Shown here one piece after another: positions 17,229 to 61,562 of a DNA stretch of 64,000 nt (position 1 is the stretch's first letter; every line of letters begins with the position of its first letter). The notes beneath the pieces were generated by a model. The model searched no databases, was not told the origin of the DNA, and worked only from the letters and a program-made list of their open reading frames with translations. The translations under genes and the position numbers were made by a program. Origin of the DNA: Deltaproteobacteria bacterium (GTDB lineage Bacteria; Desulfobacterota; Binatia; HRBIN30; JACQVA1); assembly GCA_016210005.1 (NCBI GenBank), contig JACQVA010000008.1, positions 10,625 through 74,624 of the forward strand, in the 5' to 3' direction.

Positions 17229-17232
<4 letters not shown>
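16504..17232 (+). CDS. Sensor histidine-kinase-like protein: soluble, with a degenerate ATP-binding region.
   Basis: The H-box-like VDHTFGNIFQRLYHL is followed by an HATPase-like region lacking clear G1/G2 glycine boxes. Its stop overlaps the response-regulator start (ATGA). An alternative GTG start lies at about 16546. Confidence 0.45.
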
Positions 17233-18635
<1,403 letters not shown>

Positions 18636-18757
18636 GTCTGGCGCGGATGCAGTGCCTGGCAGAGCTGCAAGCGGAAAACCGGTGCTTTGCCACGACAGTT
18701 GGTGGAGCGCCTGCCTCGCTGCCGTGTGTATCGCCGGCGGCGTTCATTGACCACTCA

Positions 18758-18772
18758 TGGCACAGCTGTTGC
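18758..18772 (+). promoter_or_regulatory. Sigma-54 (-24/-12) promoter.
   Basis: TGGCAC-agctg-TTGC matches the consensus TGGCAC-N5-TTGC exactly. It sits 25 bp upstream of the ATG at 18797. Confidence 0.6.
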
Positions 18773-18796
18773 GCCACAACGACACGGGGATGATCC

Positions 18797-23273: not shown

Positions 23274-23280
23274 GGCGCGC

Positions 23281-40279: not shown

Positions 40280-41629
40280 ATGGCGCGGACGGTCGGTAAG
40301 AACGCCCTCTATACCCTGATTGCCGGACTCGGCTCGTTCGCCATGGGTTTGGGCACAGGCATCATCACCGCGCGCATGCTCGGGCCGCACGACCGCGGCA
40401 TCTTCTCGCTGGTGTCGGTGCTGCCGCATACCGTTGTGGCCTTCGTCAAGCTGGGCATGGCGCAGGGCAGCATTTACGCCATTCGCCGCCAGCGTGCCGA
40501 CCCTGGCGCCGTGGCGGGGCAGCTCCTGCTGGCGGCGTTCGCCATCAGCCTGCCGGTTATGGCCGGCGTGTATGTGTACAAGGCGCAGGCAGCGCGGCTG
40601 CTGCTCGCAGGGGCTAACCCGCTGTACTTCCTGCTGGCACTGCCGCTGATCCCGCTGCTGTTGCTCGAGAGCTATTTCTTCGGCGTACTACAGGCGGTGG
40701 ACCGCTTCGGTATCTTCAATCGCCGCCGTTTGCTGGCGGGGGCCGGCGGCCTGATCGGCATGCTGCTGGCCCTGGTGATCTGGCGCGGCGGCTTGACGGC
40801 GGCCATTCTCGTCTCGGTCGGCATTACCGCGCTACTCGATCTCTGGCTGATCGTCACGGTGGCGCGCGTGTGTGGGATGCATTTCCGCTGGGACGGCAAG
40901 TTGGCGCGCGGGCTGCTGAGCTTCGGCCTGAAGTCCCATCTGCAGACAATCGCCACCCACATGCACTTCCGCGCCGACTTGTACTTGGTTGCGCTGCTGC
41001 TAAACCCCACCGACGTCGCATTCTACTCGATTGCGTCACGACTGGCGGAGGTGATTCTGTTCGTTCCCGAGTCGCTGGGCTTGGTGGTCTACCCGAAGCA
41101 GGCGGGCTCCTCTAAGGCGGTGTTGGAAGACCTCACCGCCGCCTCGTGCCGGCACGTGGCGCTGATGACAGTGCTGGCGGGGCTAGCGCTGGTAGCTGTC
41201 GGGCCTTGGCTGGTGGTGGTGTGGTACGGGCGCGATTACGCCCCGGCGGGTGCGCCTCTGTTCTATGTCGTGCCGGGCGTGATCATGATGTCGCTCTTCT
41301 TCATGTTGTCGCGCAGCTTCACCAGCCAGAATCGGCAAGAGATCAACATCGTCGCTTCGGGCGTGGCGCTGGGGTGCAATGTGCTGTTCAACATCTACCT
41401 CATCCCCCGCATGGGCATCTCCGGAGCTGGCTTGTCGACTGCCCTTTCGTATTCGCTGGCCACGCTGATCCTGGCGCGCGTATACCTCAAGGAGTCGGGG
41501 AAGACAGTTCGTGATCTGCTGGTAATCAAGCGTGATGATCTGGTGCTCTACCGCCAGCTGCTGGCCGAAGTGATCGGCCGCCGTGGCAGCATTCGGCCGG
41601 CAGTGGCGACGCAAGGCGGTGCTCGTTGA
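40280..41629 (+). CDS. Wzx-type oligosaccharide flippase (MOP superfamily polysaccharide biosynthesis protein).
   Basis: 449 aa with about 12 to 14 TM helices and a polysaccharide-biosynthesis-protein-like layout. Confidence 0.75.
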   Translation: MARTVGKNALYTLIAGLGSFAMGLGTGIITARMLGPHDRGIFSLVSVLPHTVVAFVKLGMAQGSIYAIRRQRADPGAVAGQLLLAAFAISLPVMAGVYVYKAQAARLLLAGANPLYFLLALPLIPLLLLESYFFGVLQAVDRFGIFNRRRLLAGAGGLIGMLLALVIWRGGLTAAILVSVGITALLDLWLIVTVARVCGMHFRWDGKLARGLLSFGLKSHLQTIATHMHFRADLYLVALLLNPTDVAFYSIASRLAEVILFVPESLGLVVYPKQAGSSKAVLEDLTAASCRHVALMTVLAGLALVAVGPWLVVVWYGRDYAPAGAPLFYVVPGVIMMSLFFMLSRSFTSQNRQEINIVASGVALGCNVLFNIYLIPRMGISGAGLSTALSYSLATLILARVYLKESGKTVRDLLVIKRDDLVLYRQLLAEVIGRRGSIRPAVATQGGAR

Positions 41630-42747
41630 TGGCCGAGCTTCGGTTCAATTTGGCCGGTGCCGGCGGGTCGCTGCGCAGTCACTACGCGCCCTTCATGGCG
41701 TATGCCGAACAGCATCTGTTGCCGCTGCGGATCGCCGCAGGCGAGGTGGCGCCCGTCATCGACGCGGTGCTGGAGTGGCATGAGAGCCCGCCCCCGCAGG
41801 ACCGCCACACGGCCGAACCGGAATTGGCCGGGCTGGAGCGCCTGGATCGCGATCTCTACGTCGGGCCGGGGCGCGTCTGCTGGTTTCGCATCGATGACTT
41901 CCGGGACTTGCACCTGCGCTTTGATTGGGACGGCCGGCAGCTACACGTCCACGGGCACTACTACTTCTACCTCAGCCGCGACCGGCTGCGCGACCGCACC
42001 AAACGTTGGTGGGCCGGCGCGCGCCTGCGGGCGCAACGGCTGAATCGGTTCACCACCTTGCTCTACTATCTGGCCTACTATCCCGCGTTCTGGTGGTGCG
42101 AAACGCAGATGGGCTTTCACCCGATTCATGCGGCCGGGGCGGTGACCGATGCCGGTGCAGTTGTGCTGGCCGGGCCGAGTGGGGTCGGGAAGTCGACCCT
42201 CGCCCTGGCGCTGGCGGCGCAGCCGGCGCAGCTGTTGTCTGAAACGTTTCTGCTGCATCGTGGCGCAACGCTGCGCCCGGTGCGGGAGCCGCTGCTGCTT
42301 GATGAATGGAGCCGCTCATGGCTGGGCAGTGCCATGAGCGGCCTCGAACCGCTGCGCGCGGGCTTCGTGTTCAGCCGCAACGGCTACCATCGACTGGCGG
42401 GGTTGGCCGAAGAAGGCCGGGCGGCGGCGGTGCTCTTGCCGCGCCGGGCGCCGCGCACCTACGTGCGGGCGATCAGCGCCGAAGAGGCCCATCAGCGCCT
42501 CAGTGCCGCCAACCAGATTGTGAAGGATATGCGGCGCTATTGGGCGTTTGCCGCCGCGCTCGATCCGCTGGCGCCGAGTGGGCTGATGGCGCAGCGCGAG
42601 GCGGAGCTGGCTCGGCTGACCGCCGGAGCCCGCTGCGGCGAATTCGGCCTCGGCCCCGAGCTGAAACTCGGGGATGCGGTGCGCCAGGTGCGCGAGTTCC
42701 TGAGCGCCGAGTCTCTCCCTGTGACGCGGCGAGCGCGGTGCGCATGA
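41626..42747 (+). CDS. HPr-kinase/phosphorylase C-terminal-domain-like P-loop protein (HprK-related kinase).
   Basis: VVLAGPSGVGKSTLALALAAQPAQLLSETFLLHRG aligns with the HprK pattern LtGeSGiGKSelALeLikrGhrLvaDD. Start and stop both overlap neighbouring genes (ATGA). Confidence 0.55.
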   Translation: MMAELRFNLAGAGGSLRSHYAPFMAYAEQHLLPLRIAAGEVAPVIDAVLEWHESPPPQDRHTAEPELAGLERLDRDLYVGPGRVCWFRIDDFRDLHLRFDWDGRQLHVHGHYYFYLSRDRLRDRTKRWWAGARLRAQRLNRFTTLLYYLAYYPAFWWCETQMGFHPIHAAGAVTDAGAVVLAGPSGVGKSTLALALAAQPAQLLSETFLLHRGATLRPVREPLLLDEWSRSWLGSAMSGLEPLRAGFVFSRNGYHRLAGLAEEGRAAAVLLPRRAPRTYVRAISAEEAHQRLSAANQIVKDMRRYWAFAAALDPLAPSGLMAQREAELARLTAGARCGEFGLGPELKLGDAVRQVREFLSAESLPVTRRARCA

Positions 42748-43975: not shown

Positions 43976-45754
43976 ATGCGAATTCTCGGCATCTCGTGCT
44001 TCTATCATGACGCCGCGGCGGCGTTGCTCGACGACGGCGTCTTGGTGGCGGCGGCGGAGGAAGAGCGCTTCTCGCGCAAGAAGCACGATTACGACTTCCC
44101 GGCATTGGCGATCCGGTTCTGCCTGGCGCAGGCCGGCATCACCACCGCTGACCTCGACTATGTCGTCTTCTACGAGAAGCCGTTCGTCAAGTTCGAGCGC
44201 ATCCTGACCACGGCGCTGCAAGTCGTGCCCAAGTCGTGGAAGGTGTTCGGCGATGCCATGACGACATGGCTGCTCGACAAGCTGTGGGTAAAAAACCTCA
44301 TCAGCAAAGAGCTGGGTGTACCACCGTCGAAGATCCTGTTCAGCGAGCATCACCTGTCGCACGCCGCCAGCACCTTTCTTTGTTCGCCCTTTGATGAAGC
44401 GGCGGTGCTGACGATTGACGGCGTCGGCGAGTGGGCGACTGCCACCATGGGGCGTGGAAAGGGCACCGACTTGCAGTTGCTGCGTGAGATCCGCTTTCCG
44501 CACTCGGTCGGCCTGCTCTACAGCGCGTTCACCGCGTTCTTGGGCTTCGAGGTCAACGAGGGCGAATACAAAGTCATGGGCATGGCGCCTTACGGCAAGC
44601 CGCGCTACCTCGACAAAGTCCACAAGCTCATTCAGCTCGGCCGTGATGGCAGCATCTGGCTCGATATGGATTACTTCTGCTTCCACCACTCCTCGCACCA
44701 GACCTACAAGCCGAAGTTCACCGAGCTGTTTGGCGAACCGCGCGATCCCTCGTGGCACTTCTTCACCGAAAGCTCGGGCTATCCGTCGTACTTCGAGCCC
44801 AAACCGGCCAACTACGGCGAGTTGGCCAAGAAGAACGAGTACTACGCGGACGTGGCCGCCAGTATTCAACAGGTTACCGAAGAGATCGTCCTGGCCATGG
44901 CGCGCCGGCTCCACGAAGAGACCGGACTCGACAAGCTCTGTCTGGCTGGCGGGGTGGCGTTGAACAGTGTGGCGAACGGGCGGGTGCAGCGTGAAACCCC
45001 GTTCAAGCAGCTCTTCATCCAGCCGGCCGCGGGTGACGGAGGCGGGGCGCTGGGCGCGGCGCTCTACGCCTATAATTGCGTCTTGGGCCGGCCCCGTAAG
45101 TTTGTGATGCGCCATGCTTACTGGGGGCAGGAGTTCGGCGCCGGCCCGATCAACGACTTCGTACGTTCCACCGGGGCGCCGGCGCAGACCTTTAATAAGG
45201 AAGAGGACCTCCTCGACCGGGTGGTGGAGGAGTTGCAGGCGGGGCGCGTGGTCGGGTGGTACCAAGGCCGCTTCGAATGGGGGCCGCGGGCGCTCGGCGC
45301 CCGCAGCATCATCGCCGATCCGCGCCGCGCTGACATGAAGGAAGTCGTCAACGTCAAGATCAAGTTCCGCGAGCCGTTCCGCCCGTTTGCGCCGTCGGTG
45401 TTGGCGGACGCCGCCGAGCGCTTTTTCGACTTACCCGATGCGCCGTCGCACTATCCCGCTCGCTTCATGCTGTATGTAGTCGATGTCAAGAACGGCCAGG
45501 GCGACGTCGTCCCTGCGATCACGCACGTGGACGGCACGGCGCGCTTGCAGACCGTGCACCGAGCGGAGAGCCCGCTCTACTACCGCTTGATCGAGCGCTT
45601 CGGCGCCGCGACCGGTGTGCCGGTAATCATGAACACCTCGTTCAACCTGAAAGGCGAGCCAATTGTGACCACCCCAGCCAATGCTTTCAGTACCTTTCAG
45701 CGCAGCGGCATGGATACGCTGGTGCTGGGCAACACCGTGGTCTCGAAAGCGTAG
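43976..45754 (+). CDS. Carbamoyltransferase (NodU/CmcH family).
   Basis: N-terminus MRILGISCFYHDAAAALLDDG...; 592 aa with a carbamoyltransferase C-terminal domain. Confidence 0.85.
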   Translation: MRILGISCFYHDAAAALLDDGVLVAAAEEERFSRKKHDYDFPALAIRFCLAQAGITTADLDYVVFYEKPFVKFERILTTALQVVPKSWKVFGDAMTTWLLDKLWVKNLISKELGVPPSKILFSEHHLSHAASTFLCSPFDEAAVLTIDGVGEWATATMGRGKGTDLQLLREIRFPHSVGLLYSAFTAFLGFEVNEGEYKVMGMAPYGKPRYLDKVHKLIQLGRDGSIWLDMDYFCFHHSSHQTYKPKFTELFGEPRDPSWHFFTESSGYPSYFEPKPANYGELAKKNEYYADVAASIQQVTEEIVLAMARRLHEETGLDKLCLAGGVALNSVANGRVQRETPFKQLFIQPAAGDGGGALGAALYAYNCVLGRPRKFVMRHAYWGQEFGAGPINDFVRSTGAPAQTFNKEEDLLDRVVEELQAGRVVGWYQGRFEWGPRALGARSIIADPRRADMKEVVNVKIKFREPFRPFAPSVLADAAERFFDLPDAPSHYPARFMLYVVDVKNGQGDVVPAITHVDGTARLQTVHRAESPLYYRLIERFGAATGVPVIMNTSFNLKGEPIVTTPANAFSTFQRSGMDTLVLGNTVVSKA

Positions 45755-45763
45755 TGCGCGGCC

Positions 45764-46954
45764 GTGACGCGCGGGCAGGAGGTGAGCGCGTGGGCGCTGT
45801 TGCTGCTGCTGGGGCTGCTTCTGGGCGGCGGCCTGGTCGAAGCCGGCGTCCGCGTCTTGCATCTCGTGCCCGATCGCTTTTGGGAGCCGGATGCGAAGCT
45901 GGGGTGGCGGCACAGCGCTGGCAGGACCGGCTGGTGGACGCAAGAGGACCGGGAGTTCCTGGTCCCGATCAGTATAAGTCGGCAGGGACTGCGCGATGTC
46001 GAGCACGCGTATGCCAAGCCTGCCGGAGTGACGCGAGTGTTGCTGTTGGGAGACTCGTTCATTGAGGCATTGCAAGTGCCACTGGCAGCGACCGTAGCAC
46101 GGCGACTAGAGGCGCATCTCGGGGCAACGACCGAAGTCATCAACGCCGGCGTCAGCGGCTATGGCACCGCCAGTGAGTTGCTGTTTCTACGCGATCAAGG
46201 GTTGCGCTACGCCCCCGACGTCGTGCTGCTGGCCTTCTATCCGGGTAATGACGTGAAGAACAACAGTGCGACGCTCGAAGACATCCTGCCACCGGTTTAT
46301 GACGGCGGCGGCAAGCTGGAACGGGTGACGGCTCCACTCGAAGGGTTCGCGCGCGCGCGCACGGGTTGGCGCGATCACGTACAGGCATATCGCTACACCC
46401 GCCAACTGCTGCTGCGTCACCCGGAGCTGACGGCGCCCTTGCGCCGCCTCGGGGTGGCGGCAAGCCTGGATGCCCCGCGCGCGGCGAGGGAGCGCGACGG
46501 TGTGCCGGTTGACTACTGGGTTTATGCCCCTGAGCCCAGCGCCGAGTGGGAAGACGCTTGGCGGCGCACGGAGTCGTTGCTCGCCGCCGTGCGCGCTACG
46601 GCGATCAGTGCCGGGAGCCGGTTCGCGATCGCGGTCATTCCCAGCCGCTATCAGATCTATCCCGAGCTCTGGGCGGAAACGCTCGCCGCGCATCCGGCGA
46701 TGCAGGGACGGGCGTGGGAGTTGGCCGGTCCAACTCGGCGCTTGCTACGGTGGTGCGAAACGCAGGGCGTGCCCTGCCTCGACTTGGCGGCGGGTTTGGT
46801 GGCGGCGGTGAAGACGAGCGCGCCGTTGTACTTCCACCACGATGGCCATTGGACCGCTGCCGGGCACGAAACGGTAGCGCAACAGCTGAAGAACTTCTTG
46901 CGCGAGCGGCAGCTCGTGTCAGTGCAGGAGGCAGAGACGCATGAGCTTCATTGA
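45764..46954 (+). CDS. SGNH/GDSL-hydrolase-family protein (AlgX/AlgJ-like polysaccharide O-acetyltransferase component).
   Basis: Signal anchor; LLLGDSF (GDS block); DGHWT. An alternative GTG start lies at about 45782. Confidence 0.7.
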   Translation: MTRGQEVSAWALLLLLGLLLGGGLVEAGVRVLHLVPDRFWEPDAKLGWRHSAGRTGWWTQEDREFLVPISISRQGLRDVEHAYAKPAGVTRVLLLGDSFIEALQVPLAATVARRLEAHLGATTEVINAGVSGYGTASELLFLRDQGLRYAPDVVLLAFYPGNDVKNNSATLEDILPPVYDGGGKLERVTAPLEGFARARTGWRDHVQAYRYTRQLLLRHPELTAPLRRLGVAASLDAPRAARERDGVPVDYWVYAPEPSAEWEDAWRRTESLLAAVRATAISAGSRFAIAVIPSRYQIYPELWAETLAAHPAMQGRAWELAGPTRRLLRWCETQGVPCLDLAAGLVAAVKTSAPLYFHHDGHWTAAGHETVAQQLKNFLRERQLVSVQEAETHELH

Positions 46955-47120
46955 AGGACTCCGCAACCGCTTGGGCATCGCCGGCGAGCTGCTGTCATTC
47001 CTTTGGCAGCGCAAGCTGTGGTGGATGATTCCGATGGTCTTCGTGCTGCTAGTGTTCGGCGGCCTCATGGTCACCGCCCAGAGCACGGCGCTGGGGCCGT
47101 TCATCTATACGCTGTTCTAG
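46941..47120 (+). CDS. Small membrane protein, DUF5989-like (59 aa). It is not in the ORF track.
   Basis: MSFIEGLRNRLGIAGELLSFLWQRKLWWMIPMVFVLLVFGGLMVTAQSTALGPFIYTLF. The gene overlaps the upstream gene by 14 nt. Confidence 0.6.
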   Translation: MSFIEGLRNRLGIAGELLSFLWQRKLWWMIPMVFVLLVFGGLMVTAQSTALGPFIYTLF

Positions 47121-47166: not shown

Positions 47167-50100
47167 ATGATTGACCGATACGGAAAATCCCTGCTCCTGG
47201 CAGTCGCGCTCTTGGGGCTTAGTGCGCCAATGGTGCAAGCTGCGCCGGTCCTGTTTGTTCGCACGACCGGTGACGACGGGGCGGATGGGTTGTCGCCCGC
47301 TACCGCCCTGCAGAGCATCCGTTCGGCGGTGCAGCGCCTAAGTGAAAGCGGCGGACAGGTGATCGTAGGCCCAGGCACATATGTCGAAGGGGATATCTCG
47401 CCGCGGACACTTGCCGGGCCGGGCTTGCTGCGCCCGGATGCGCTGGAGATTATCGCAGATCGCGATGGGCGGCTGACTAGCGAGCTACCCGGGCCGGTGA
47501 TCGTCGACGCCGGCGTGGCCGGCAAGCCGACAGGGTTCGTGCTGCTCGGCGAATCGAATATCCGCATAGATGGATTCCACGTGCGTGGTGCGTCCGACGC
47601 CGGTATTCAAGTTCGGTTCAATACCGCGGCAGGCACGCCGTCCGCGGATGTCACGATCATAAATTGTGTGGCGTTCGCGAACGAGAAGCGCGGTATCGAT
47701 GTTCGCGATGCCGACCGGGTTACGGTGGCGAACAACCTAACGTACAATAACGGCTCGACCGGCATCTCGGTCGGTGGTGGGATCCGTGGCTCCGCCGACG
47801 CTGTAATCATGCAGAACACCAGCGTTGGCAATGGCATCTACGGGATCTTTGTCGGCGATGGCAATCAAAGCGCCGTCGCCTCGAGTAACGTCATCGTCTT
47901 GTCGAATGTGACAGCGTACAATGGCGTGGCGGGGATCAAAGCGGCCCCGGCTTCGCAGCGCACGTACGGCAGTGCTTTCAATGTGAGCGCCGACGCCTTT
48001 GAGCCGGTGACGTCACAAGACCCGACCGACCTGGCCGCGGATCCCTTGCTGGCGAACCCTGCTGGTGCGCCAGGCGGGCTGGGTGGGGGCGAACTTGCCG
48101 ACGATGATTTCCGCCTGCGAGCGGGAAGCCCTGCGCTCGATTACGGACCCGCTGACGCGACAACCGTCGGAATCACCGGCAGCGCGGCGGTGGACGGCGG
48201 CCCTGACGATGGCACGGTTGACGCCGGCTATCATCAGAGCAACACGGCGACGCAACTGGTGGTGCCGGCGATTCCCTTGGTGCCGATCTTCGTTCGCATC
48301 ACCGGCAGTGATTCAAACGGCGGCGGGACGGCGGACCAAGCGTTGCGCACGATTGGGGCTGCAGCCGCTCGCGCTCGTGCCGGAAACCGCGTTGTCGTTG
48401 GCGCTGGGGAGTACCGCGAAGGTGATATCAGCCTGTTGGATCAGTCGGGAACGAAGCATCGGCCGGTAGAGTTTGTCGCGGACCACGATGGCATCTGGAC
48501 TGGTGATCAGGGTGCGGTGATCATAGATGCCACCGGCTGGCAGACTGCTTTTAACCTTCTTGGAAGCCGCTACGTGAAGATCGACGGTTTTAGCGTTACC
48601 GGCGGGCGCGATTCCGGCATCCAGATCCGCGCGCGCGCAACGGTAGATGGCCTACACGGCGCCGACAACGTTACTGTGATCAATTCGCTGGTATTTTCCA
48701 ACGGCGGTAGCGGAATTCTGGTCAGGGATTCAGCCGAAGCGGCAATATACAATAACCTGGTGTATGCCAATGCCACGGGTGGAGTGGCGATCGGCGGTCT
48801 CGAGGTTGGTTCGCCGCGGGCACGCGTCGCCAACAACACCGTGTATCAGAACGGTGGACACGGGATCCTGATCGGGAGCCGGGGCGATCAAGACAGGCGG
48901 GGATCACCCGGGGCACTGGTCCTGAACAATATCCTGGATCGCAACGGCGGCCGCTCCCTGCTGGTGACGCCGCTGTCGCTTCGGGATTTCAGCGCCACTG
49001 CGAACTTGGATGGGGACATCGTCGGCGCGATCGGCTTCGTCAATCCGGCCGGGGCCGACGGCCAGCTCGGCGGCGCGGGCTTCCTGGATGACGACTTTAG
49101 GTTACAGCAGCGCAGTGCCGGGCAGGAAACGACGAGTGTCGCGGTCGATTATAGTGCCGGCATGGCCGCACCGATGGGGCTGCACTTCGGCTCGACGCGC
49201 ACTGACCTGGTCGGCGACGAAGGGCTTGCCGATGCCGGTTTTCACTATCGCCGTGTCGGGCAACGGCCGGTGTTGGGCACGCTCGCTACCCTGCAAGCGC
49301 GCCTGGCCGGCGTTAACGCAAACCGGCTTCTCTTCGTGGCTGTCGATGGCGACAATGGCGATGGGCGGACGCCGGCCAACGCCTTTTCGACCATTCGGGC
49401 AGCAGCTCGCGTGGCAATGCCCGGCGATACAATCGTGGTAGCGCCGGGCCGGTATGCGGAGGGAGATGTCTCGTTCAACAACAGCGGCACTGTGCTGCAA
49501 CCGATCGCAGTAGTGGCGGATTCCAGCGGAGCACTATCAGGCACTGCCCCGGGGCGTGTAGTGGTCGATGCGACAGGGTACGATACAGGTTTCGTGCTGT
49601 TGCGTCGCAGCTTCATTCAGATTCGCGGATTCTACATCAGCGGGGCACGAGAGGCCGGTATTCAAGTGCGGGCATGCTCGGGGGACGGATCGTTGTGTGC
49701 AACGCGTGCAGGATCCGATCACGTCACCATCGCCGGAAATGTGATTTACTCCAGCCGCCGGGGTATCGACGTCATCGACTCCAGCGACGCGGTGATCTTC
49801 AACAATCTTATATACGCCAACGAGAGCACCGGCGTCACCGTTATCGGCGAGGTGCGCTCTGCCGACGGCACGCAGGTGACGAACAACACGCTCTACCGTA
49901 ACGGTGGCGACGCGCTCTTGCTCGCGGGCACACTGGGAGCACCGAACGCCAGCGTAGTTAATAACTTGATTCAAGGGAGTGGTCTCCTCGGGGTGAAGGC
50001 GAAGCCCGAGGCGCGGCCGACGCTGGTGCTGAGCCATAACATCAATCTCGACGGTGCTAGTGCAGGAACGCCGCCGGACCCGGACGACCGAGGAATGGAC

Positions 50101-51300
50101 CCCCTATTTGTCCAGCCGACAGGTGCAGACGGAATCTTGGGCGGTGTGGGCTTTGCTGACGATGACCTCCGGCTTCAGGCTTGGCGCAGCCCCGCAGTGG
50201 ATGCCGGCGCACTCGACGCGGCCGACATGGCGCTCAGTGACGGTGTTGCCCGGAGTGATGGCGTTCGCGACAGCGGGCGCGCCGATCTCGGGTTCCACTA
50301 TGACGTCCTCGGGCCGCTCGCCGATACGGCGCAGCCCGCGGTGACGCTCTACGTCCGGGCGCAGGCAGGGGACGACCGGAACGACGGTCGCACGCCGGCC
50401 TCTGCCTTGCGGACGGTGGCGCGCGCCGCTGCCCAAGCGGGTGCCGGGACCCGGGTCTTCATTGGCACCGGGGTGTACCGTGAAGGGAATCTGCGGCCGG
50501 CTGGCAGCGGAACGGCGACAAATCCGATTGTGTTCGTCGGGGATTCTACCGGCGTCGAGACCGGTGACGGGCCGGGCGAGGTGTTGATCGATGCGACCGG
50601 ATGGAGCACGGGTTTTCGGCTGGTGGGTGGCGGGTATGTCAGATTGGAGAATCTGAGCGTTACCGGGGCGGCTAGCGCGGGCATCCTGGGCCATGCGATT
50701 GCTGGGCTCGAGTTGGCAAACTGCAAGGTGTTCTCCAACCGCAGCACGGGCGTGGCGCTGTGGCGCGTGCGCGGCGCCAGCACGGTTTTCAATAACTTAG
50801 TGTACGCCAACGGTGGCGACGGGGTGCAGCTGCGCTTGCGGCGAGAGCGTGCGGGGGCGGTGCGGCTGGCCAACAACACGGTCTATGGGAACGGCGGCCG
50901 CGGGGTATGGGTCGAGCGCTCGGGGCCGTCGCGCCGCCAAAGTGCTGTGCTGATCGCGCATAACATCATGCACAGCAATGCCGTTGACCTCGTTGTAGCC
51001 TCGCGCCGCGCTACCGGGCTCCGGCTGTTGCCGAACCTGTTGTCTCAGGCGCCAGCTGGCGACATTAGGGATGGGGGACTGCTGGTGAGCCCCCAGCTGT
51101 TTGCTGTGCCAGCCGGCGCCGACGGTGTACTTGGCGGGGCCGGCTTCGCCGACGACGACTTTCGCGTGGAGGCGACTTCCCGCGCCATCGACGCCGGGGT
51201 GGACGGTGCGGCAACCTGGGCTCTGGCTGAGACAACTGTTCGCCATGACGAGCTAGCGGACGAGGGTCTGATTGATCTTGGTTATCACTACCCACGCTGA
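47167..51300 (+). CDS. Secreted protein of 1377 aa composed of four tandem right-handed parallel beta-helix modules.
   Basis: Signal peptide MIDRYGKSLLLAVALLGLSAPMVQA. Four modules of about 340 aa each begin with a related motif (LFVRTTGDDGADGLSPATALQSIRSAV / IFVRITGSDSNGG..ALRTIGAAAA / LFVAVDGDNGDGRTPANAFSTIRAAA / LYVRAQAGDDRNDGRTPASALRTVARAAA). Each is followed by NN..N.. turns and ends with ...LGGAGFADDDFRL. Confidence 0.85.
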   Translation: MIDRYGKSLLLAVALLGLSAPMVQAAPVLFVRTTGDDGADGLSPATALQSIRSAVQRLSESGGQVIVGPGTYVEGDISPRTLAGPGLLRPDALEIIADRDGRLTSELPGPVIVDAGVAGKPTGFVLLGESNIRIDGFHVRGASDAGIQVRFNTAAGTPSADVTIINCVAFANEKRGIDVRDADRVTVANNLTYNNGSTGISVGGGIRGSADAVIMQNTSVGNGIYGIFVGDGNQSAVASSNVIVLSNVTAYNGVAGIKAAPASQRTYGSAFNVSADAFEPVTSQDPTDLAADPLLANPAGAPGGLGGGELADDDFRLRAGSPALDYGPADATTVGITGSAAVDGGPDDGTVDAGYHQSNTATQLVVPAIPLVPIFVRITGSDSNGGGTADQALRTIGAAAARARAGNRVVVGAGEYREGDISLLDQSGTKHRPVEFVADHDGIWTGDQGAVIIDATGWQTAFNLLGSRYVKIDGFSVTGGRDSGIQIRARATVDGLHGADNVTVINSLVFSNGGSGILVRDSAEAAIYNNLVYANATGGVAIGGLEVGSPRARVANNTVYQNGGHGILIGSRGDQDRRGSPGALVLNNILDRNGGRSLLVTPLSLRDFSATANLDGDIVGAIGFVNPAGADGQLGGAGFLDDDFRLQQRSAGQETTSVAVDYSAGMAAPMGLHFGSTRTDLVGDEGLADAGFHYRRVGQRPVLGTLATLQARLAGVNANRLLFVAVDGDNGDGRTPANAFSTIRAAARVAMPGDTIVVAPGRYAEGDVSFNNSGTVLQPIAVVADSSGALSGTAPGRVVVDATGYDTGFVLLRRSFIQIRGFYISGAREAGIQVRACSGDGSLCATRAGSDHVTIAGNVIYSSRRGIDVIDSSDAVIFNNLIYANESTGVTVIGEVRSADGTQVTNNTLYRNGGDALLLAGTLGAPNASVVNNLIQGSGLLGVKAKPEARPTLVLSHNINLDGASAGTPPDPDDRGMDPLFVQPTGADGILGGVGFADDDLRLQAWRSPAVDAGALDAADMALSDGVARSDGVRDSGRADLGFHYDVLGPLADTAQPAVTLYVRAQAGDDRNDGRTPASALRTVARAAAQAGAGTRVFIGTGVYREGNLRPAGSGTATNPIVFVGDSTGVETGDGPGEVLIDATGWSTGFRLVGGGYVRLENLSVTGAASAGILGHAIAGLELANCKVFSNRSTGVALWRVRGASTVFNNLVYANGGDGVQLRLRRERAGAVRLANNTVYGNGGRGVWVERSGPSRRQSAVLIAHNIMHSNAVDLVVASRRATGLRLLPNLLSQAPAGDIRDGGLLVSPQLFAVPAGADGVLGGAGFADDDFRVEATSRAIDAGVDGAATWALAETTVRHDELADEGLIDLGYHYPR

Positions 51301-51304
51301 AACA

Positions 51305-52462
51305 ATGCCGAAGATCCGTATAGTCTACGCCATCAAGTCGATGCCGGTCGGGGGTAGCCAGACGCATTTGGTACAGGTGCTGCGGCTGCTCGACCGCCGG
51401 CGCTTCGAGCCGTCGCTGTACTGTCTGACGGGCGAGGGCGTGCTGCTCGACACCGTCCGTTCGCTCGGGTTGCCGGTGGTTGATGGCCGAGTGGGGCAGG
51501 GCTTTCGCGGCCATCGGGCGGCGGCGGCGGTGTGGCGGTTGGCGCGCTACCTGCGGCGCGAACGAGCCGACGTCGTACACAATTACTTGCTGCGCGCCAA
51601 CGCCATCGGCTCGATGGCGGCGCGGCTGGCGCAGGTGCCGGTCATGCTGTGTAGCAAACGCGGCTGTCATGAACGCAAAGGCTTGGAACTAGCCGGTGCC
51701 AAGCTGGGGAACTGGTTGGCCGATTGCGTCACGGTCAACGCCGAGGCCGTGCGCGACTTTGTTGCCGACAACGAAGGCTGTCCGCGACAAAAGATGGTGG
51801 TCATCCCTAGCGGGGTGGATACGCAACGCTTCCAGCCGCTGGCGGTGGCAGACTACAAGACGGCGCTGGGAGTTGACCCGCAGCGCCTGGTCGTCGGCAT
51901 CGTGACCCGGATGCGGGTGCGCAAAGGGGTCGAGGAATTCCTGCGCGCGATGGTGCGGGTGCGCCAGCAGCTGCCGGCCGCGCACGCGGTGATCGTCGGC
52001 GAGGTCGAGCTTGACGACGACTTGCAACGCCTGGTGGCTGACAGCGGGCTGACCGACCACCTCACCCTGCTCGGGCGCCGCGGCGATATGCCCGAGGTGC
52101 TCTCGGCTTTCGATGTCTTCGTGTTGTCATCCCACGACGAAGGCATGTCCAATGCCATCCTCGAAGCGATGGCGATGGAGAAGCCGGTGGTGGCCACCGA
52201 CGTCGGCGGTACGGGTGAAGTTGTGCGCCACGGGCAGACCGGCCTGCTGGTGCCGCCCAAGGAGCCGCTGCCGCTGGCCGCGGCGATCATTGATGTGCTG
52301 GCGGCCCCGCAGCGCGCACGCGAGATGGGCCGCCTCGGCCGTCGCGTTGTCGACGAGCGCTTCTCGGCGAACGCCATGGTGCGGCAGATGGAAGACCTCT
52401 ACGTTCGGTTGCTGCGCCAGCGGGGTGCGGCGTTGGCGCAAGCCGCGGCGATCGCAAGCTGA
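51305..52462 (+). CDS. Glycosyltransferase family 4.
   Basis: N-terminus MPKIRIVYAIKSMPVGGSQTHLVQ; C-terminal EGMSNAILEAMAMEKPVVATDVGG. Confidence 0.85.
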   Translation: MPKIRIVYAIKSMPVGGSQTHLVQVLRLLDRRRFEPSLYCLTGEGVLLDTVRSLGLPVVDGRVGQGFRGHRAAAAVWRLARYLRRERADVVHNYLLRANAIGSMAARLAQVPVMLCSKRGCHERKGLELAGAKLGNWLADCVTVNAEAVRDFVADNEGCPRQKMVVIPSGVDTQRFQPLAVADYKTALGVDPQRLVVGIVTRMRVRKGVEEFLRAMVRVRQQLPAAHAVIVGEVELDDDLQRLVADSGLTDHLTLLGRRGDMPEVLSAFDVFVLSSHDEGMSNAILEAMAMEKPVVATDVGGTGEVVRHGQTGLLVPPKEPLPLAAAIIDVLAAPQRAREMGRLGRRVVDERFSANAMVRQMEDLYVRLLRQRGAALAQAAAIAS

Positions 52463-52521
52463 AACCGGGCGGGACAGCGGTAGGCAATCCCACACACACT
52501 TCGTTGAGCAGGAAGAGGGCA

Positions 52522-53901
52522 ATGGCTTCGCAACAGTTGAACATCGTGCTGGTCGTTCTCGGCGGCGTACGTGCCGACCACCTCTCGTGCTACGGCTATT
52601 CGCGCCCGACAACGCCGTTCCTTGACCAAGTGGCCCGCGAAGGCGTGCGTTTCCAGCGCTCGTTCGCCACCGCCTCGTGGAGTTTGCCTTCCCATGCCTC
52701 GCTGTTCACCGGCCTGTTCCCCTCCAGCCATGGTGCCACCGACGAACACCTCTTCCTGGCGCCGCGCCACGCGCTGCTGCCGGAGTGCTTGAAGGCGGTG
52801 GGATACCGCACGGCCATCTTCTCGACCGATACGTGGGTGAGCCCGGCGACCGGCTTTGCTCGTGGAGTGGACCACTTCGATACCCAAAGGTTGCCCAACC
52901 CGATCCTGCGCCGCGCCCAGAACTACCGGCGCGCGGTTACCGATCGCTTGCTGCGCCGCGCAGACGCGGGGGCGCGTCGCACCAATCAGGCGCTGCTGCG
53001 GTGGGTGGGGAACTCCGATCAGCCGTTTTTTGCCTTCGTGCATTACAACGAAGTGGGCCTGCGTGCTCACCTGCCCCGTCCCTATGACAAGAAGTTCCTG
53101 CCGCAAGGCGTAAGCGAGAAGCGCGTGCACAGTATCACCCAGCGCTACGACGAGTCCTTGTGCGGCTGTGCCGACATGACCGAGGAGGAGATTGCGATCT
53201 TGACTGCGCGCTACGACAACGGCCTGGCTTACGTCGATTTCCGTGCGCGCGAGATTGCCGAAGCGCTGCAGCGGGGTGGCCGGTGGGACGACACGCTCTT
53301 CATCGTTACAGCCGATCACGGTGAAGACCTCGGTGCGCATCGTAAGGTGGCGCCTAGCTGGGGACTGTACGACACGCAGGTGCGTGTCCCGCTCATCGTA
53401 CGCTGCCCAAGCGTGGTGCCGCAGGGTTTCGTGGTCGAGGAGTTTGCCCAGTCCTGCGACACCATGCCGACGGTGCTCGGGCTCGCAGGCGTTGCCGATG
53501 GTGCGCGTCGGATGCAGGGGCGGCCGCTGATCGCCGGCGGCCGGGCCACGCCGGGCCCGGCGTTTGTGGTCTCGGAGCAGTTTCGGCCGAATCTCGCCGC
53601 GCTGCGGCGTGCCGGGCGCGCCGATGCGCGGCCTTACGATGTGCGCAAGAAAGCCATCCGCACGATTCGCGAGAAGTTCATTTGGCATTCGGATGAAGCC
53701 AACGAGTTCTACGATCTAACCGCTGACCCGGGAGAAACCCACAACCTCATCGATCGCGAGGGCGGCCGTGCCGATGCCCTGCGCAAGCAGCTCTTCGATT
53801 GGCTGGCCCAGCTCGACAAGTTCGAGGGTGAGGAGAGCGTGTCCCGGGAGATGGGTGGGCTCGTGCGCGAGCAGCTACGCGGGCTCGGTCATGTGGCCTG
53901 A
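52522..53901 (+). CDS. Sulfatase-like (alkaline-phosphatase superfamily) enzyme, soluble.
   Basis: NIVLVVLGGVRADHLSCYGY. The active-site block SWSLPSHASLFTG follows the S-x-P-x-H pattern, with His where sulfatases have Arg. Confidence 0.75.
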   Translation: MASQQLNIVLVVLGGVRADHLSCYGYSRPTTPFLDQVAREGVRFQRSFATASWSLPSHASLFTGLFPSSHGATDEHLFLAPRHALLPECLKAVGYRTAIFSTDTWVSPATGFARGVDHFDTQRLPNPILRRAQNYRRAVTDRLLRRADAGARRTNQALLRWVGNSDQPFFAFVHYNEVGLRAHLPRPYDKKFLPQGVSEKRVHSITQRYDESLCGCADMTEEEIAILTARYDNGLAYVDFRAREIAEALQRGGRWDDTLFIVTADHGEDLGAHRKVAPSWGLYDTQVRVPLIVRCPSVVPQGFVVEEFAQSCDTMPTVLGLAGVADGARRMQGRPLIAGGRATPGPAFVVSEQFRPNLAALRRAGRADARPYDVRKKAIRTIREKFIWHSDEANEFYDLTADPGETHNLIDREGGRADALRKQLFDWLAQLDKFEGEESVSREMGGLVREQLRGLGHVA

Positions 53902-53913
53902 GCCAATGCGCCG

Positions 53914-55590
53914 GTGGTCGCGGGCGTGAGGGAACACGGCGTGCGTGATCCTTGGCTGCTGGTCGTACTGGCGCTCAGCGCCAGCCTCGGGCTCTACCAA
54001 CTCACGTGGGGGCTGCCCAATGGCGATCACTCGTGGGCCGCCGACGCGCTCGGGCCGGTGACCGTGCTCGGGATCGTGCGCCGCTCGCTCGCCGAATGGA
54101 ATTCGGGATGGTTCTACTTCAAGTACCCCGTGGGCTATCCCCTGATGCTGTTCGCGGTCTCGGCACCGTACCTGGCGTGGCTGTTTGTGAGCGGGCAGCT
54201 GCGGCAGCCCAAGGCCGTCTATCCCTACGGCTTCAGCGATCCGGAAAACGCGCTCTACGCCATGGCGCTGCTCGGGAGATGCCTGAGCGTGATTTGCCTG
54301 GTGGCAACGGTGGCGCTGACCTACGATATCGGCCGGCGGCTGTTCGGCCGTACCGCCGGCCGCTTGGCGGCGTGGTTTGTCGCCAGTGCCTATCCGGTGC
54401 TCTACTACGCTCACACCACCAACTTAGACGCGGCCTACCTCTGCTGGCTGGCGCTGGCATTGTGGGCCGCGGTGGTGGCGGCCGAGGGCGAGCGGCGCTG
54501 GCCCTATGTCGCGCTCGGCATCGCCGCCGCGATGGCGGTCTCGACCAAGGAGCAGGCGTTTGCCTTCCTGCTGCCGCTGCCGCTGGTTATCGCCGTGCGC
54601 CGGTATCGGGCGCAGCCGGCCGCGCTCGGCGGTGCGCAGCGCTGGGCCACTGCGCTGTGGAACCGCGGCACCCGCGCTGGGCTGACGGCTACGATGCTGG
54701 CCTTGACGATCGGCAGTAACGTGGCGTGGAACCCGAGCGGGTTCGTCAATCGGATTCGCTACCTCAGCGGCCAGCAGATCCCCGGGGTGTCCGCGCGCCT
54801 GGCACCGGTGGAGTTCGGGCTCTTCAAAGGGGCTGACAAGGAGTGGCAGTACTTGCAGCAGCTTTACGACGCAATCGAGAGCAGCCTGGGCCTGCCGCTG
54901 GTACTCACCAGTGCGGCCGGAGTGGTCTACGTGGCACTCAGGTACCGCTCGGCTGCGGCCGCTTTGCTGTTGCCGGCGGCCGCCCAGTACTACCTTTCTC
55001 TGCGGACCCTCGACTTGATCACCCTGCGTTACACGCTGCCGCTGAGCTTGATCATCGCCTTGTGTGCCGGTGCGCTGTGCGCGGATGCGCTGGCCTCACC
55101 CGCGCGCTACCTGGCCGGGGCGGTGGTAGCTGGCCTGTGTGTGCTTGGCCTGGCGCGAGCGATCGAGTTGGATCTGCTGCTGCGTGATGATCCGCGCTAC
55201 TACGCCGAGGCCTGGTTGCGCCGCAACGTGGCGGCTGCCAGCGCGGTGGAAGTATACCAGAAGCCGGTGTATTTGCCGCGGCTGCGCGGCCTGAACGCTC
55301 GAACGGTGGCACTCGAAGAGCGCACGCTCGCGGGCTTGTCACAACGGCGGCCCGACTTCATCGTTACCAGCTCGGCGGCGAAGAAAGGTATCACCCACCG
55401 CTGGCGTACCGACTGGCGCCAGGGACTGCTGGAGCCGGGCGCCGGCGCCCCGGACTTCCTGCGGGCGCTTGAATCCGAGCAGCTCCCCTACCGTGCGGTG
55501 GCGCGCTTTCGCCAGCAGCCGGCGCTGCTGCGCGTGCGCATTACCAGCCTGTGCCCGGAGATCACCGTCTTCGCGCGAAGCAACCCATGA
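53914..55590 (+). CDS. GT-C-fold membrane glycosyltransferase (family-39 / ArnT-PMT-like).
   Basis: Multi-TM N-terminal half with a conserved early loop (..YFKYPVGYPLM..), then a C-terminal soluble domain. Confidence 0.6.
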   Translation: MVAGVREHGVRDPWLLVVLALSASLGLYQLTWGLPNGDHSWAADALGPVTVLGIVRRSLAEWNSGWFYFKYPVGYPLMLFAVSAPYLAWLFVSGQLRQPKAVYPYGFSDPENALYAMALLGRCLSVICLVATVALTYDIGRRLFGRTAGRLAAWFVASAYPVLYYAHTTNLDAAYLCWLALALWAAVVAAEGERRWPYVALGIAAAMAVSTKEQAFAFLLPLPLVIAVRRYRAQPAALGGAQRWATALWNRGTRAGLTATMLALTIGSNVAWNPSGFVNRIRYLSGQQIPGVSARLAPVEFGLFKGADKEWQYLQQLYDAIESSLGLPLVLTSAAGVVYVALRYRSAAAALLLPAAAQYYLSLRTLDLITLRYTLPLSLIIALCAGALCADALASPARYLAGAVVAGLCVLGLARAIELDLLLRDDPRYYAEAWLRRNVAAASAVEVYQKPVYLPRLRGLNARTVALEERTLAGLSQRRPDFIVTSSAAKKGITHRWRTDWRQGLLEPGAGAPDFLRALESEQLPYRAVARFRQQPALLRVRITSLCPEITVFARSNP

Positions 55591-55594
55591 TATT

Positions 55595-57013
55595 ATGATC
55601 TTCAACTCACTGGCGTTCTTGATTTTCTTACCCGTCGTGCTGGTGCTGGTGGCGACCCTGCCCAAGCGCTGGCGCAACGCCATGTTGCTGGTGGCCAGCT
55701 ACATCTTTTACGGCTATTGGGATTGGCGCTTCGTCGGGCTGCTGTTCGCGACCACTGTGGTGGACTTCTGGGTCGGGCAGCACATCTACGCCACCAATGA
55801 TCGCTTGCGCCGCCGGCGGATCCTACTGCTGAGCCTGGGGGTCAACCTCGGGGCACTCGGGTTCTTCAAGTACTTCAACTTCTTCATTTACTCCGCGGCG
55901 GCCGCGCTGCAGTCGGTCGGGCTCCATGGTTCGATTCCGACGCTCTCGATCATTCTGCCGGTGGGGATTTCCTTTTACGTCTTTCAGTCGATGTCGTACA
56001 CCATCGACATCTATCGGCGCGAGATGGAGCCGGCGCAGAGCTTCTGGGATTTCGCCCTCTACGTCGCTTACTTCCCCCAACTAGTCGCCGGCCCGATCGA
56101 GCGTGCCACCCACCTGCTGCCGCAAATCGTCAACCCCGGCCGCTTCTCGCCCGAGCGCGCCAACATCGCCGTGGTATTGATCATTGTCGGCTTCGCCAAG
56201 AAGGTGTTGATCGCTGACAACCTGGCACCGGAGGTCGAGCGCATCTTTTCCGATCCCGGTCACATGAGCAGTGGGGAGCTATTACGGGGCGCCTACTACT
56301 TCGCCTTCCAGATCTACGGTGACTTCGCCGGCTATTCCGATATCGCGCGCGGCGTCAGTGAGTTGCTCGGGATTCGACTGATGTTCAATTTCAACCAACC
56401 CTACCTCTCACAATCAATCACCGAGTTCTGGCGCCGCTGGCACATCTCCCTTTCCACCTGGCTGCGCGACTACCTCTACGTGCCGCTGGGCGGCAACCGC
56501 TTGGGCGAGTGGAAGACCTATCGCAACTTGATGCTGACCATGCTGATCGGCGGGCTGTGGCACGGGGCGAACTGGACCTTTGTCGCCTGGGGCGGCATCA
56601 ACGGGCTGTATCTGGCGGTGGAGCGCCGGCTTGGCATCGGCCGCGGGTTGTCCGCCGCCGAGGCCAATCCGGCGCTGCAATGGGTCGGTCGCGTGGCCCT
56701 AACGTTGCTGACGTTCCACTTGGTAACGCTGACGTGGATCTTCTTTCGCGCGCCGAACTTCGGCGTCGCCTTCGAGTATCTTGCCGGCATCGCGCAATTG
56801 CGCGACCTGACGGCGATCGGAGTGTGGCCGTTCGCTGTCGCCGCGGCTCTCTTAGCCATCGACATTCCTCAGAATCGCTCCGGGGATCACGCGGTGTTTC
56901 TACGCATGCCGTGGTGGGTGCAATCTCCCGTCTATTGCGGCCTGGCGTTCGCGGTTTTGGGCCGGCTGCTCTGGGGCGGGAAGGAATTGCCGTTCATCTA
57001 CTTCCAGTTTTGA
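55595..57013 (+). CDS. MBOAT-family membrane O-acyltransferase (AlgI/DltB-like).
   Basis: MIFNSLAFLIFLPVV N-terminus; conserved His region WRRWHISLSTWLRDYLY. Confidence 0.85.
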   Translation: MIFNSLAFLIFLPVVLVLVATLPKRWRNAMLLVASYIFYGYWDWRFVGLLFATTVVDFWVGQHIYATNDRLRRRRILLLSLGVNLGALGFFKYFNFFIYSAAAALQSVGLHGSIPTLSIILPVGISFYVFQSMSYTIDIYRREMEPAQSFWDFALYVAYFPQLVAGPIERATHLLPQIVNPGRFSPERANIAVVLIIVGFAKKVLIADNLAPEVERIFSDPGHMSSGELLRGAYYFAFQIYGDFAGYSDIARGVSELLGIRLMFNFNQPYLSQSITEFWRRWHISLSTWLRDYLYVPLGGNRLGEWKTYRNLMLTMLIGGLWHGANWTFVAWGGINGLYLAVERRLGIGRGLSAAEANPALQWVGRVALTLLTFHLVTLTWIFFRAPNFGVAFEYLAGIAQLRDLTAIGVWPFAVAAALLAIDIPQNRSGDHAVFLRMPWWVQSPVYCGLAFAVLGRLLWGGKELPFIYFQF

Positions 57014-57030: not shown

Positions 57031-57996
57031 GTGAAACAGTCGGCGGTCGTGAATACACCGGCTCGGCCAGGGACGATCGCGGCCTCTGCCGCCGTGGGTT
57101 GCCCGGTGTGCGGCGGGACGGAGTTTGGCGCGATGTTCGGCGGGGGCGCGCGGCCCACGGCGCGTCGCAACGCCGGGGCCTACCGCATCACGCAAAGCTC
57201 GCGCGCCTTGGTCGGCGCCATCCAGCGTTGCCGCAACTGCGGCTTGGGGCTGTTGCCGCCGGCGTTGGTTGACGCCGGCCACTACGAAGAGGGCTTCGAC
57301 GAGCGCTTTGCCGAACAGGCCCAGGTCCGTATCCGTAACGCCGAGCGGCTGCTCGAACTGTTGCCGCCGCCGGTGCCCGGAGCGCGCTTGCTCGATGTCG
57401 GCTGCGCCTACGGCTTTCTGCTCGCGGCGGCGCGCATCGAGGGCTACACCCCGGTCGGGGTCGAGCTGTCGCAACCGGCCGCCGAACACGCCCGCCAAGC
57501 TTACGGGGTCGAGGTGTTCAACGGCCCGGTGCAAGATGCGCCATTCCCGCCCGGAAGTTTCGACGTCATCACGCTCAGCGACGTGATCGAGCATTTCAGT
57601 GATCCTGCACCGGTGGTGGCACGACTGCACCAGTGGCTGCGCCCGAACGGGCGACTGCTCATCCTCACGCCGGATGCCGGCAGCGTGGTGGCCCGCCTGT
57701 TGGGCCGTCACTGGTGGGCCTTGCTGGATGATCACTACTGGTATTTCTCGCGTCCGACGCTGACCCGCTTCTTGGCGCAGCAAGGCTTTGCCGTCGAGCG
57801 GCTGCACTCTTTCGGGCGAGTATTTCCAATCGCGCATTGGGTGTTCAAGCTCAGCCAGTACAACGCCGGCGTGCACCGCCTGCTCGACCGAACCGTGCGC
57901 ATGTTGGGTTTGGCGGAGACGGAAGTGCCACTGAATCTCGGTGATCAGATGGCGTGTGTGGCGCGACGGACGGACCAGGGTAGGCCCAGGAGATAA
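57031..57996 (+). CDS. Class I SAM-dependent methyltransferase with an N-terminal Zn-ribbon (CxxC..CxxC).
   Basis: GTG start with an AAGGA RBS. CPVCGG...CRNCGL, then LLDVGCAYGFLL motif I. The track ORF N-terminal extension overlaps the MBOAT gene and is spurious. Confidence 0.75.
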   Translation: MKQSAVVNTPARPGTIAASAAVGCPVCGGTEFGAMFGGGARPTARRNAGAYRITQSSRALVGAIQRCRNCGLGLLPPALVDAGHYEEGFDERFAEQAQVRIRNAERLLELLPPPVPGARLLDVGCAYGFLLAAARIEGYTPVGVELSQPAAEHARQAYGVEVFNGPVQDAPFPPGSFDVITLSDVIEHFSDPAPVVARLHQWLRPNGRLLILTPDAGSVVARLLGRHWWALLDDHYWYFSRPTLTRFLAQQGFAVERLHSFGRVFPIAHWVFKLSQYNAGVHRLLDRTVRMLGLAETEVPLNLGDQMACVARRTDQGRPRR

Positions 57997-57997
57997 G

Positions 57998-61474: not shown

Positions 61475-61562
61475 AGCGGGGCGCGAGTAGCACTGGCGCT
61501 TCCGCGCTGTCAATGCGCCTCGAGCGGAAAGCCACGATGAGGGCAGCTCCGGGGGCCGGAGA

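Follow-up and report, generated by a model that had tools for sequence, protein, structure and literature searches.

What does a protein made of four consecutive β-helices do in a gene cluster for exopolysaccharide (EPS) synthesis? The gene that raises this question lies at 47167–51300 (+) of a 64,000-nucleotide stretch, here called the window, from a Binatia genome deposited as Deltaproteobacteria bacterium (GenBank assembly GCA_016210005.1, contig JACQVA010000008.1, positions 10,625 to 74,624 of the forward strand). As a rule, the β-helix proteins found in polysaccharide loci have a single domain and are lyases, hydrolases or epimerases. The protein described here is composed of four autonomous right-handed parallel β-helix domains, M1 to M4, each with an N-cap and a C-cap around some eight coils. 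No characterised enzyme family can accommodate the protein, and it falls outside AlgG/AlgE, PL6 and NosD alike; it is most likely to be a periplasmic or extracellular EPS-processing or EPS-binding protein.

The open reading frame (ORF) has exactly the borders and the length, 1377 aa in the ORF list of the window, that the original prediction had given it. The product is identical (100%) to NCBI MBI4514429.1, homologue P0001 in the comparisons below, which carries the automatic name 'right-handed parallel beta-helix repeat-containing protein [Deltaproteobacteria bacterium]'. An AGGA Shine–Dalgarno-like element stands a few bases 5′ of the ATG. Within the co-directional EPS cluster the gene is coupled translationally; since the ATG of the following GT4 gene, at 51305, comes 4 nt past its stop, it is embedded in the operon. 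Antisense and off-frame ORFs within 47167–51300, none of which was searched and which are of a kind usual in G+C-rich DNA, are not taken as genes, the sense frame having Pfam matches and homologues along its full length. The GC content at third codon positions is 0.71, below that of the flanking cassette genes (0.77–0.85), and local GC falls to ~0.63 at this gene; amino-acid bias, expression level or a different history could account for the low third-position value.

At the N-terminus, MIDRYGKSLLLAVALLGLSAPMVQA followed by AP forms the sole hydrophobic segment of the protein (the only one with a 19-aa hydropathy above 1.6), and similar AxA-type leaders stand directly ahead of module 1 in homologues. 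On this pattern residues 1–25 (47167–47241, +) are predicted to be a Sec-type signal peptide cleaved between VQA and AP, and the protein would be Sec-exported and soluble, in agreement with its earlier description as secreted.

Module borders were set by splitting the protein at a recurring N-terminal motif, giving M1 (residues 27–371; 47245–48279), M2 (residues 372–720; 48280–49326), M3 (residues 721–1058; 49327–50340) and the divergent terminal module M4 (residues 1059–1377; 50341–51297), all on the + strand. The four align with one another over their full length at 33–43% identity (pairwise BLASTP, E values of 1.7e-34 to 9.7e-59), which bears out the tandem architecture proposed originally; a self-BLAST of the whole protein returned the identity match only, and it was the module-wise pairwise comparison that revealed the repeats. 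The proposed β-helix profiles also matched, Pfam Beta_helix (PF13229) with 150.1 bits against a cutoff of 25.9 over five stretches, and NosD (PF05048) with 93 bits over four stretches that include every module. DUF1565 (PF07602) scores 55.8 bits against a gathering score of 20.3, with four stretches, one per module, and the TIGR03804 PbH1 repeat model scores 60.7 against a cutoff of 19.45. With PF13229 and TIGR03804 above their curated cutoffs the protein belongs to the right-handed parallel β-helix/pectin-lyase fold, and by profile score it is also a DUF1565 member. A match to Pfam Chondroitinas_B is limited to 49 N-cap residues, and the Pfam scan of the protein revealed no RTX repeats or R-modules, no autotransporter barrel and no TPS domain.

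One boundary has to be moved. The motif LGGxGFADDDFRL, which had been taken as the module end, lies ~50–60 residues ahead of it and is followed by SPAxDxG ... DxGxxDxGYHY. At the DNA level the repeats amount to short matches of only 63–73%, 990–1050 nt apart, and recent duplication or an assembly artefact is therefore ruled out.

AlphaFold2 was run on residues 24–1058 (M1–M3) and residues 372–1377 (M2–M4), with a 24-sequence alignment in each case. The M1–M3 model has a mean pLDDT of 87.2 and a pTM of 0.64, the M2–M4 model a mean pLDDT of 84.8 and a pTM of 0.49. Every module shows the periodic short strands of a β-solenoid (in M1, residues 145–150, 175–180, 198–203 and 225–229), and these strand ladders, together with Foldseek matches of probability 1.0 to PL6, PL9, AlgE and GH136, identify the modules as β-solenoids. 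Whether the four helices stack into one rod, a question that the original prediction had raised, or resemble beads was judged from the pLDDT and pTM values. At the M1/M2 junction the model is confident (pLDDT 86–97), and the linkers on both sides of M3, M2/M3 and M3/M4, have pLDDT values below 50; with the low pTM values, a single rod finds no support in the models. Instead, M1 and M2 would form a rigid, tightly joined pair, with M3 and M4 tethered by flexible linkers.

Ranked best by Foldseek among PDB structures are the two-domain PL6 alginate lyases, followed by Pel9A, GH136 lacto-N-biosidases, a PL9 rhamnogalacturonan lyase, AlgE4/AlgE6, AlgG, GH87, GH55 and phage tailspikes; the top matches (probability 1.0) are all polysaccharide-active β-helix enzymes. 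With three-module models Foldseek spreads its alignments over the modules (root-mean-square deviation ~20 Å, TM ≤0.36), so that the family ranking is usable and the geometry is not. The highest structural-alignment identity, 16%, is to Pel9A (PDB 1RU4; E values of 4e-9 to 1e-7), a match at the level of the fold. At the sequence level, phmmer searches of the PDB with the whole protein or with M1 alone found nothing; a profile of the four modules recovered AlgE4 (E 1.8e-7), AlgE6, a GH120 xylosidase (N-cap only), BcAlyPL6 (E 1e-4) and AlgG (E 8e-4).

A polar pattern on two stacked strands, which in M1 are modelled at residues 145–150 and 175–180, is kept in M1–M3 and in their orthologues. This patch, referred to here as the Q/R/D patch, has the form D/E-x-G-I-Q-[VI]-R on its first strand and (K/R)-G-I-[D/L]-V-[R/I]-D on the next coil, and reads D144-A-G-I-Q148-V-R150 and G-I-D178-V-R180-D181 in M1, GIQ486-I-R488 and GIL-V-R520-D521 in M2, and GIQ833-V-R835 and GID868-V-I-D871 in M3. 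Judged by the register of the PbH1 repeats, it appears to occupy the sheet position of the catalytic strands of AlgE4. In M4, GILGH and GVALWR stand in place of the two segments, and a deletion has removed the loop that follows the first patch strand. Across the family the Q/R pair is retained in ~55 of 71 non-terminal modules, and terminal modules are highly variable.

The number of modules varies among relatives. Of the 109 homologues scanned with a module hidden Markov model (HMM), P0002–P0005 (1714–1738 aa) have five modules, P0006–P0008 four, and P0009 and P0010 three, while P0083, P0086 and P0087 have two modules and a dockerin-like tail; in many others the first helix is elongated, its repeated coil blocks extending over up to ~1200 aa, and one or two standard modules come after it. 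The closest genomes are metagenome-assembled genomes (MAGs) of Candidatus Binatia and 'Deltaproteobacteria', and a single-protein scan for related loci returned ten, mostly from the same two groups. A distant 900-aa relative, P0094, lies in an unrelated gene context, and a single-module relative, P0171, adjoins a Wza-like gene or exporter. The C-termini of P0032, P0044, P0048, P0083, P0086 and P0087 carry a ~65-aa tail with two repeats of the type GDCNGDGxVTIDELIxAVNIALG and conserved Cys residues, a dockerin- or EF-hand-like arrangement that suggests Ca-dependent anchoring in these homologues.

In a neighbour-joining tree of the modules of P0001–P0010, modules cluster with their counterparts at the same position in the other proteins, and the duplications are therefore old; the tree also shows that the five-module proteins have an extra M1 copy and that P0009 is without M2. 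Each module is 53–66% identical to its positional orthologue, compared with 33–43% between paralogues, and M4 is 53–63% identical to the terminal modules of orthologues, from which it follows that all four modules are maintained by selection. An old duplication under selection, as first proposed, thus stands. Group-specific HMMs back the positional groups with margins of >290 bits within the P0001–P0009 subclade only, and typing of modules as M1–M4 failed in distant cassette orthologues (margins <45 bits).

More widely, an exhaustive profile search, covering 1.84 billion representative proteins, yielded 22,626 matches at E ≤1e-3 and 393 at E ≤1e-30, ranging from stand-alone modules (340–450 aa) to giants with 15–18 matched stretches, and the module is accordingly regarded as an autonomous unit whose tandem arrays are not rare. 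As far as could be shown, no functionally characterised protein is among these matches. That the quadruplication singled out in the original prediction is in itself a special feature is therefore not supported, arrays being common in metagenomes and the same genomic slot holding two-, three-, four- and five-module proteins as well as long-helix versions.

That slot lies, as the original prediction had it, in the middle of an EPS operon. All called genes between ~18.8 and 60.1 kb are on the + strand and make up a ~41-kb co-directional cluster of the Wzx/Wzy/Wza type, with Wza, Wzz/Wzc, Wzy, a Wzx-like flippase, a priming transferase, glycosyltransferases and sugar-nucleotide enzymes; an alginate-type set (Alg8/Alg44/AlgK/AlgE/AlgL) was not seen among its scanned genes. 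The β-helix gene belongs to a conserved cassette within the cluster. The first gene of the cassette encodes a NodU/CmcH-type carbamoyltransferase (43976–45754, +; Pfam Carbam_trans_N and Carbam_trans_C), which has the same syntenic place in L001, L002, L003, L014, L015 and the P0086 locus. It is followed by an AlgX-like SGNH/GDSL protein with an N-terminal membrane anchor (45764–46954, +; Pfam ALGX 41 bits, Lipase_GDSL_2 39 bits) and, directly 5′ of the β-helix gene, by a 59-aa DUF5989 small membrane protein (46941–47120, +; PF19451, E 4.3e-20), found in every syntenic locus; on the 3′ side is the GT4 glycosyltransferase (51305–52462, +), assigned to the cassette by position and synteny.

The order carbamoyltransferase, AlgX-like SGNH, DUF5989, β-helix is kept in all six other loci examined, those of P0002 (five modules), P0009 (three), P0029 (long helix plus two), P0086 (two), P0019 (1874 aa) and P0045 (1173 aa), which come from Binatia and 'Deltaproteobacteria' MAGs; the GT4 gene follows in all five whose record extends beyond the β-helix gene, the P0086 record ending there. 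Occupying this slot are β-helix proteins of 810–1874 aa with differing module layouts. The trio of carbamoyltransferase, SGNH and DUF5989 genes always stands 5′ of the β-helix gene in relatives, and the DUF5989 gene overlaps the 3′ end of the SGNH gene by 14 nt. A literature search on DUF5989 found no mention of it, and one on Binatia and exopolysaccharide found nothing relevant.

The reading that we favour, and to which we give an even chance, is that the exported protein acts on the EPS of its own cluster, with working sites in M1–M3 and a non-catalytic helper in M4. After export by Sec it would meet the Wzx/Wzy-made polymer in the periplasm or outside the cell, and M1–M3 would be sites for trimming, depolymerising or otherwise tailoring the glycan, or at least for binding it tightly. 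They are taken as working sites because the patch is inferred to lie on the sheet with which β-helix enzymes of the AlgE/AlgG type grip and process the polymer. M4, by analogy with the C-terminal β-helix of two-domain PL6 lyases, may be a non-catalytic helper or docking module; it is without the patch, yet is as conserved among orthologues as M1–M3, and there is precedent in PL6 for an inactive but essential second β-helix domain (PMC12992946). The scan of cluster genes showed no UDP-sugar 6-dehydrogenase or other uronic-acid-forming gene, a result that slightly favours a hydrolase or binding function over a lyase or C5-epimerase.

Several observations weigh against this reading. No curated family model reaches its cutoff, the AlgG equivalog NF038177 scoring 21.1 bits against 700, the NosD model TIGR04247 29 bits against 300 and the LIC10774/LIC10365 surface protein family NF047854 69.1 bits against 380. 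The catalytic motif of AlgE/AlgG, YG[FI]DPH[DE], is absent from the modules: the YGFDPHE segment of AlgE4 is left opposite a gap, local alignments of the single modules to this segment begin only past the motif and are ambiguous there, and D178 of AlgE4 aligns to a consensus Arg (HMMER), the modules having R, R, I and W where the motif position corresponds. In the alignment to PDB 7DMK the PL6 motifs NGGETIR, ExExxxxK and RH are not conserved, and the modules read NG[IGGG][YHDR][GA][ILV]... and AGIKAAP at these positions; the Asn/Arg/Lys/Arg-His active site of PL6 comprises N201, R207, K240, R261 and H262 in BoPL6 (PMC12992946). No catalytic residues can be assigned in the modules, and the surface exposure of the patch is read from the strand pattern alone. 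Finally, the slot tolerates a more than twofold range of lengths and very different architectures, including one very long helix, a plasticity that one would sooner expect of a structural or binding protein than of an enzyme.

These same points would suit a non-catalytic, multivalent EPS-binding or structural protein, which might cross-link the matrix, form a surface fibre or spacer, or serve as a scaffold in the periplasm, with the number of modules or coils setting reach or valency. AlgG, which has a structural role, can be compared with the scaffold version. The original prediction had offered both a processive or multivalent enzyme and a sheath-like structural protein, and both are candidates here. 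We regard a binding or structural function, the main rival, as possible but on the unlikely side: known catalytic motifs are absent, orthologous slots hold two to five modules or one helix of ~1200 aa, and the predicted flexible linkers would give a beads-on-a-string form, but the nearest structural relatives are all enzymes and the Q/R/D patch fits catalysis as well as it fits binding. Similarly, the dockerin-like double Ca-binding repeat that ends some homologues suggests anchoring, whereas the window protein has no PEP-CTERM signal, lipobox or dockerin tail. Kinship with enzymes could also be taken at face value, making the protein a canonical uronate enzyme in four copies, either an AlgG/AlgE-type C5-epimerase or a PL6/PL9-type lyase; the original prediction had named AlgG-like C5-epimerases and lyases as typical of single β-helix enzymes in EPS loci. 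AlgE4 is indeed the best PDB sequence match, with PL6 further down the same search, PL6 and Pel9A head the Foldseek ranking, homologues carry precomputed Pel9A-like Pfam matches, and AlgE1 has two catalytic β-helix A-modules (PMC12269086). The AlgG score, the missing DPH[DE] and PL6 residues, the lack of R-modules and RTX repeats, and a Wzx/Wzy-type cluster with neither an alginate-type synthase context nor a UDP-sugar 6-dehydrogenase seen among its scanned genes nevertheless make this improbable, and with it both the AlgG-type epimerase and the PL6 lyase assignments.

Least credible of all is a chance presence in the cluster, whether of an adhesin passenger domain or of a depolymerase or tailspike of phage origin. 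Searched against viral models, Foldseek returned many tailspike and depolymerase matches with E values down to 5e-13, but these are matches of a generic fold at 8–16% identity; no phage genes flank the locus, there is no autotransporter barrel or TPS domain, and synteny inside the EPS cluster is strict across many MAGs, so that such an origin is effectively excluded. A further elaboration, which seems to us rather unlikely, is a plastic array dedicated to the EPS cluster, in which each positionally conserved module has specialised. M1, M2 and M3 would have separate steps to carry out or recognise on a heavily decorated polymer (carbamoylated, O-acylated, methylated), M4 would attach the array to the matrix or the export machinery, and the whole would work as a multi-headed machine for polysaccharide tailoring or matrix organisation. 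The Q/R/D patch, catalytic or binding, would then be unlike that of any characterised β-helix family of carbohydrate-active enzymes, and module number would tune the EPS between lineages.

Several known systems resemble the protein in part. The two-domain PL6 lyases (AlyGC, PDB 5GKD; BcAlyPL6, PDB 7DMK; BoPL6) likewise place tandem right-handed β-helices in one secreted polypeptide, the sequence profile match to PL6 covers N-cap and coils, and their C-terminal helix, non-catalytic but needed (PMC12992946), parallels the divergent M4. They differ in having two domains rather than four, in active-site residues that are not conserved here, and in an inter-domain arrangement that does not superpose on the model (TM ≤0.25); they are also catabolic enzymes from Pseudomonadota and Bacteroidota, whereas this protein is encoded in a Binatia EPS biosynthesis cluster. 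AlgE1 and AlgE3, each with two A-modules, and the periplasmic AlgG use β-helix modules to act on an exported polysaccharide once it has been polymerised, and the alginate system also has AlgX-like SGNH and MBOAT genes, as are found near the β-helix gene. They are set apart by the YG[FI]DPH[DE] motif, RTX R-modules and dependence on the Alg8/Alg44 synthase, the β-helix protein here having neither the motif nor R-modules and its cluster being Wzx/Wzy-dependent. Pel9A/PL9 and the DUF1565 group share with the window protein both the overall fold and an N-cap motif (FVxxxGxDxNxGT...TIxxA...GDxI); to our knowledge, the DUF1565 family has no assigned function, and described members are single-module. 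The periplasmic NosD, a maturation factor of N2O reductase, has a Pfam profile that matches each module, but the neighbours here are EPS genes, with no nosZ, nosF, nosY or nosL among them, and generic PbH1 repeats account for the match.

The cluster opens with genes for an AAA_22/LysM protein, a sulfatase-family protein, a phosphodiesterase and a GT4, followed by Wza (Poly_export), Wzz, a ParA-like kinase partner, a Wzy_C polymerase and a GT1. Next come a FemAB-like protein, a GNAT protein, a DegT aminotransferase and the priming polyprenyl glycosylphosphotransferase, then an epimerase, a Gfo/Idh/MocA oxidoreductase, a second epimerase, a methyltransferase and the Wzx-like flippase. A putative P-loop protein and a further GT4 lead to the carbamoyltransferase, the AlgX-like SGNH protein, DUF5989 and the β-helix gene, 3′ of which are the cassette GT4, a sulfatase, a PMT_2-like protein, an MBOAT, a methyltransferase, a second AlgX-like SGNH and a GT2. 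The two AlgX-like SGNH paralogues and the AlgI/DltB-like MBOAT (45764–46954, 55469–57013 and 57941–59236, all +) suggest a periplasmic AlgI/J/X-like O-acylation system inside the Wzx/Wzy pathway. The two sulfatase-family proteins and one type I phosphodiesterase-family protein encoded at 21384–24939 and 52504–53901 (+) are conserved in related loci and may be tailoring enzymes that transfer or remove phospho- or sulfo-groups.

Other features of the window are recorded here. The ~370-aa product of 41626–42747 (+) has only a weak P-loop/'HprK-related kinase A' signal and is kept at the same position, with no Pfam match, in the L001, L003 and L015 clusters. The region 17199–20803 (+) encodes a sigma-54-dependent response regulator just upstream of the cluster and then the AAA_22 and LysM protein at its head. 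Several GT4 proteins of the cluster give sub-threshold matches to glycosyltransferase models of the PEP-CTERM/XrtA system; no exosortase gene was identified among the ORFs scanned. Long ORFs of 480, 330, 263 and 458 aa at 60071–61513 (−) and 264–4319 (+) have no Pfam match and are candidate genes; the 480-aa ORF, the one on which NCBIfam was run, has no NCBIfam match either.

The finding is incremental: there are precedents for the fold, for the EPS context and for β-helix domains in tandem, and arrays of the module occur in thousands of metagenomic proteins. The architecture-plastic yet conserved slot and the non-canonical patch nevertheless merit a biochemical look, for which single modules and patch mutants form a clear set of constructs. 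In the Binatia, which are widespread, uncultured bacteria of soil and sediment, one conserved EPS slot is occupied by an uncharacterised β-helix family of two to five modules that lacks known catalytic motifs. If the Q/R/D patch is catalytic, the family would be a new carbohydrate-active one; if the patch binds, it would represent a new type of multivalent matrix protein.

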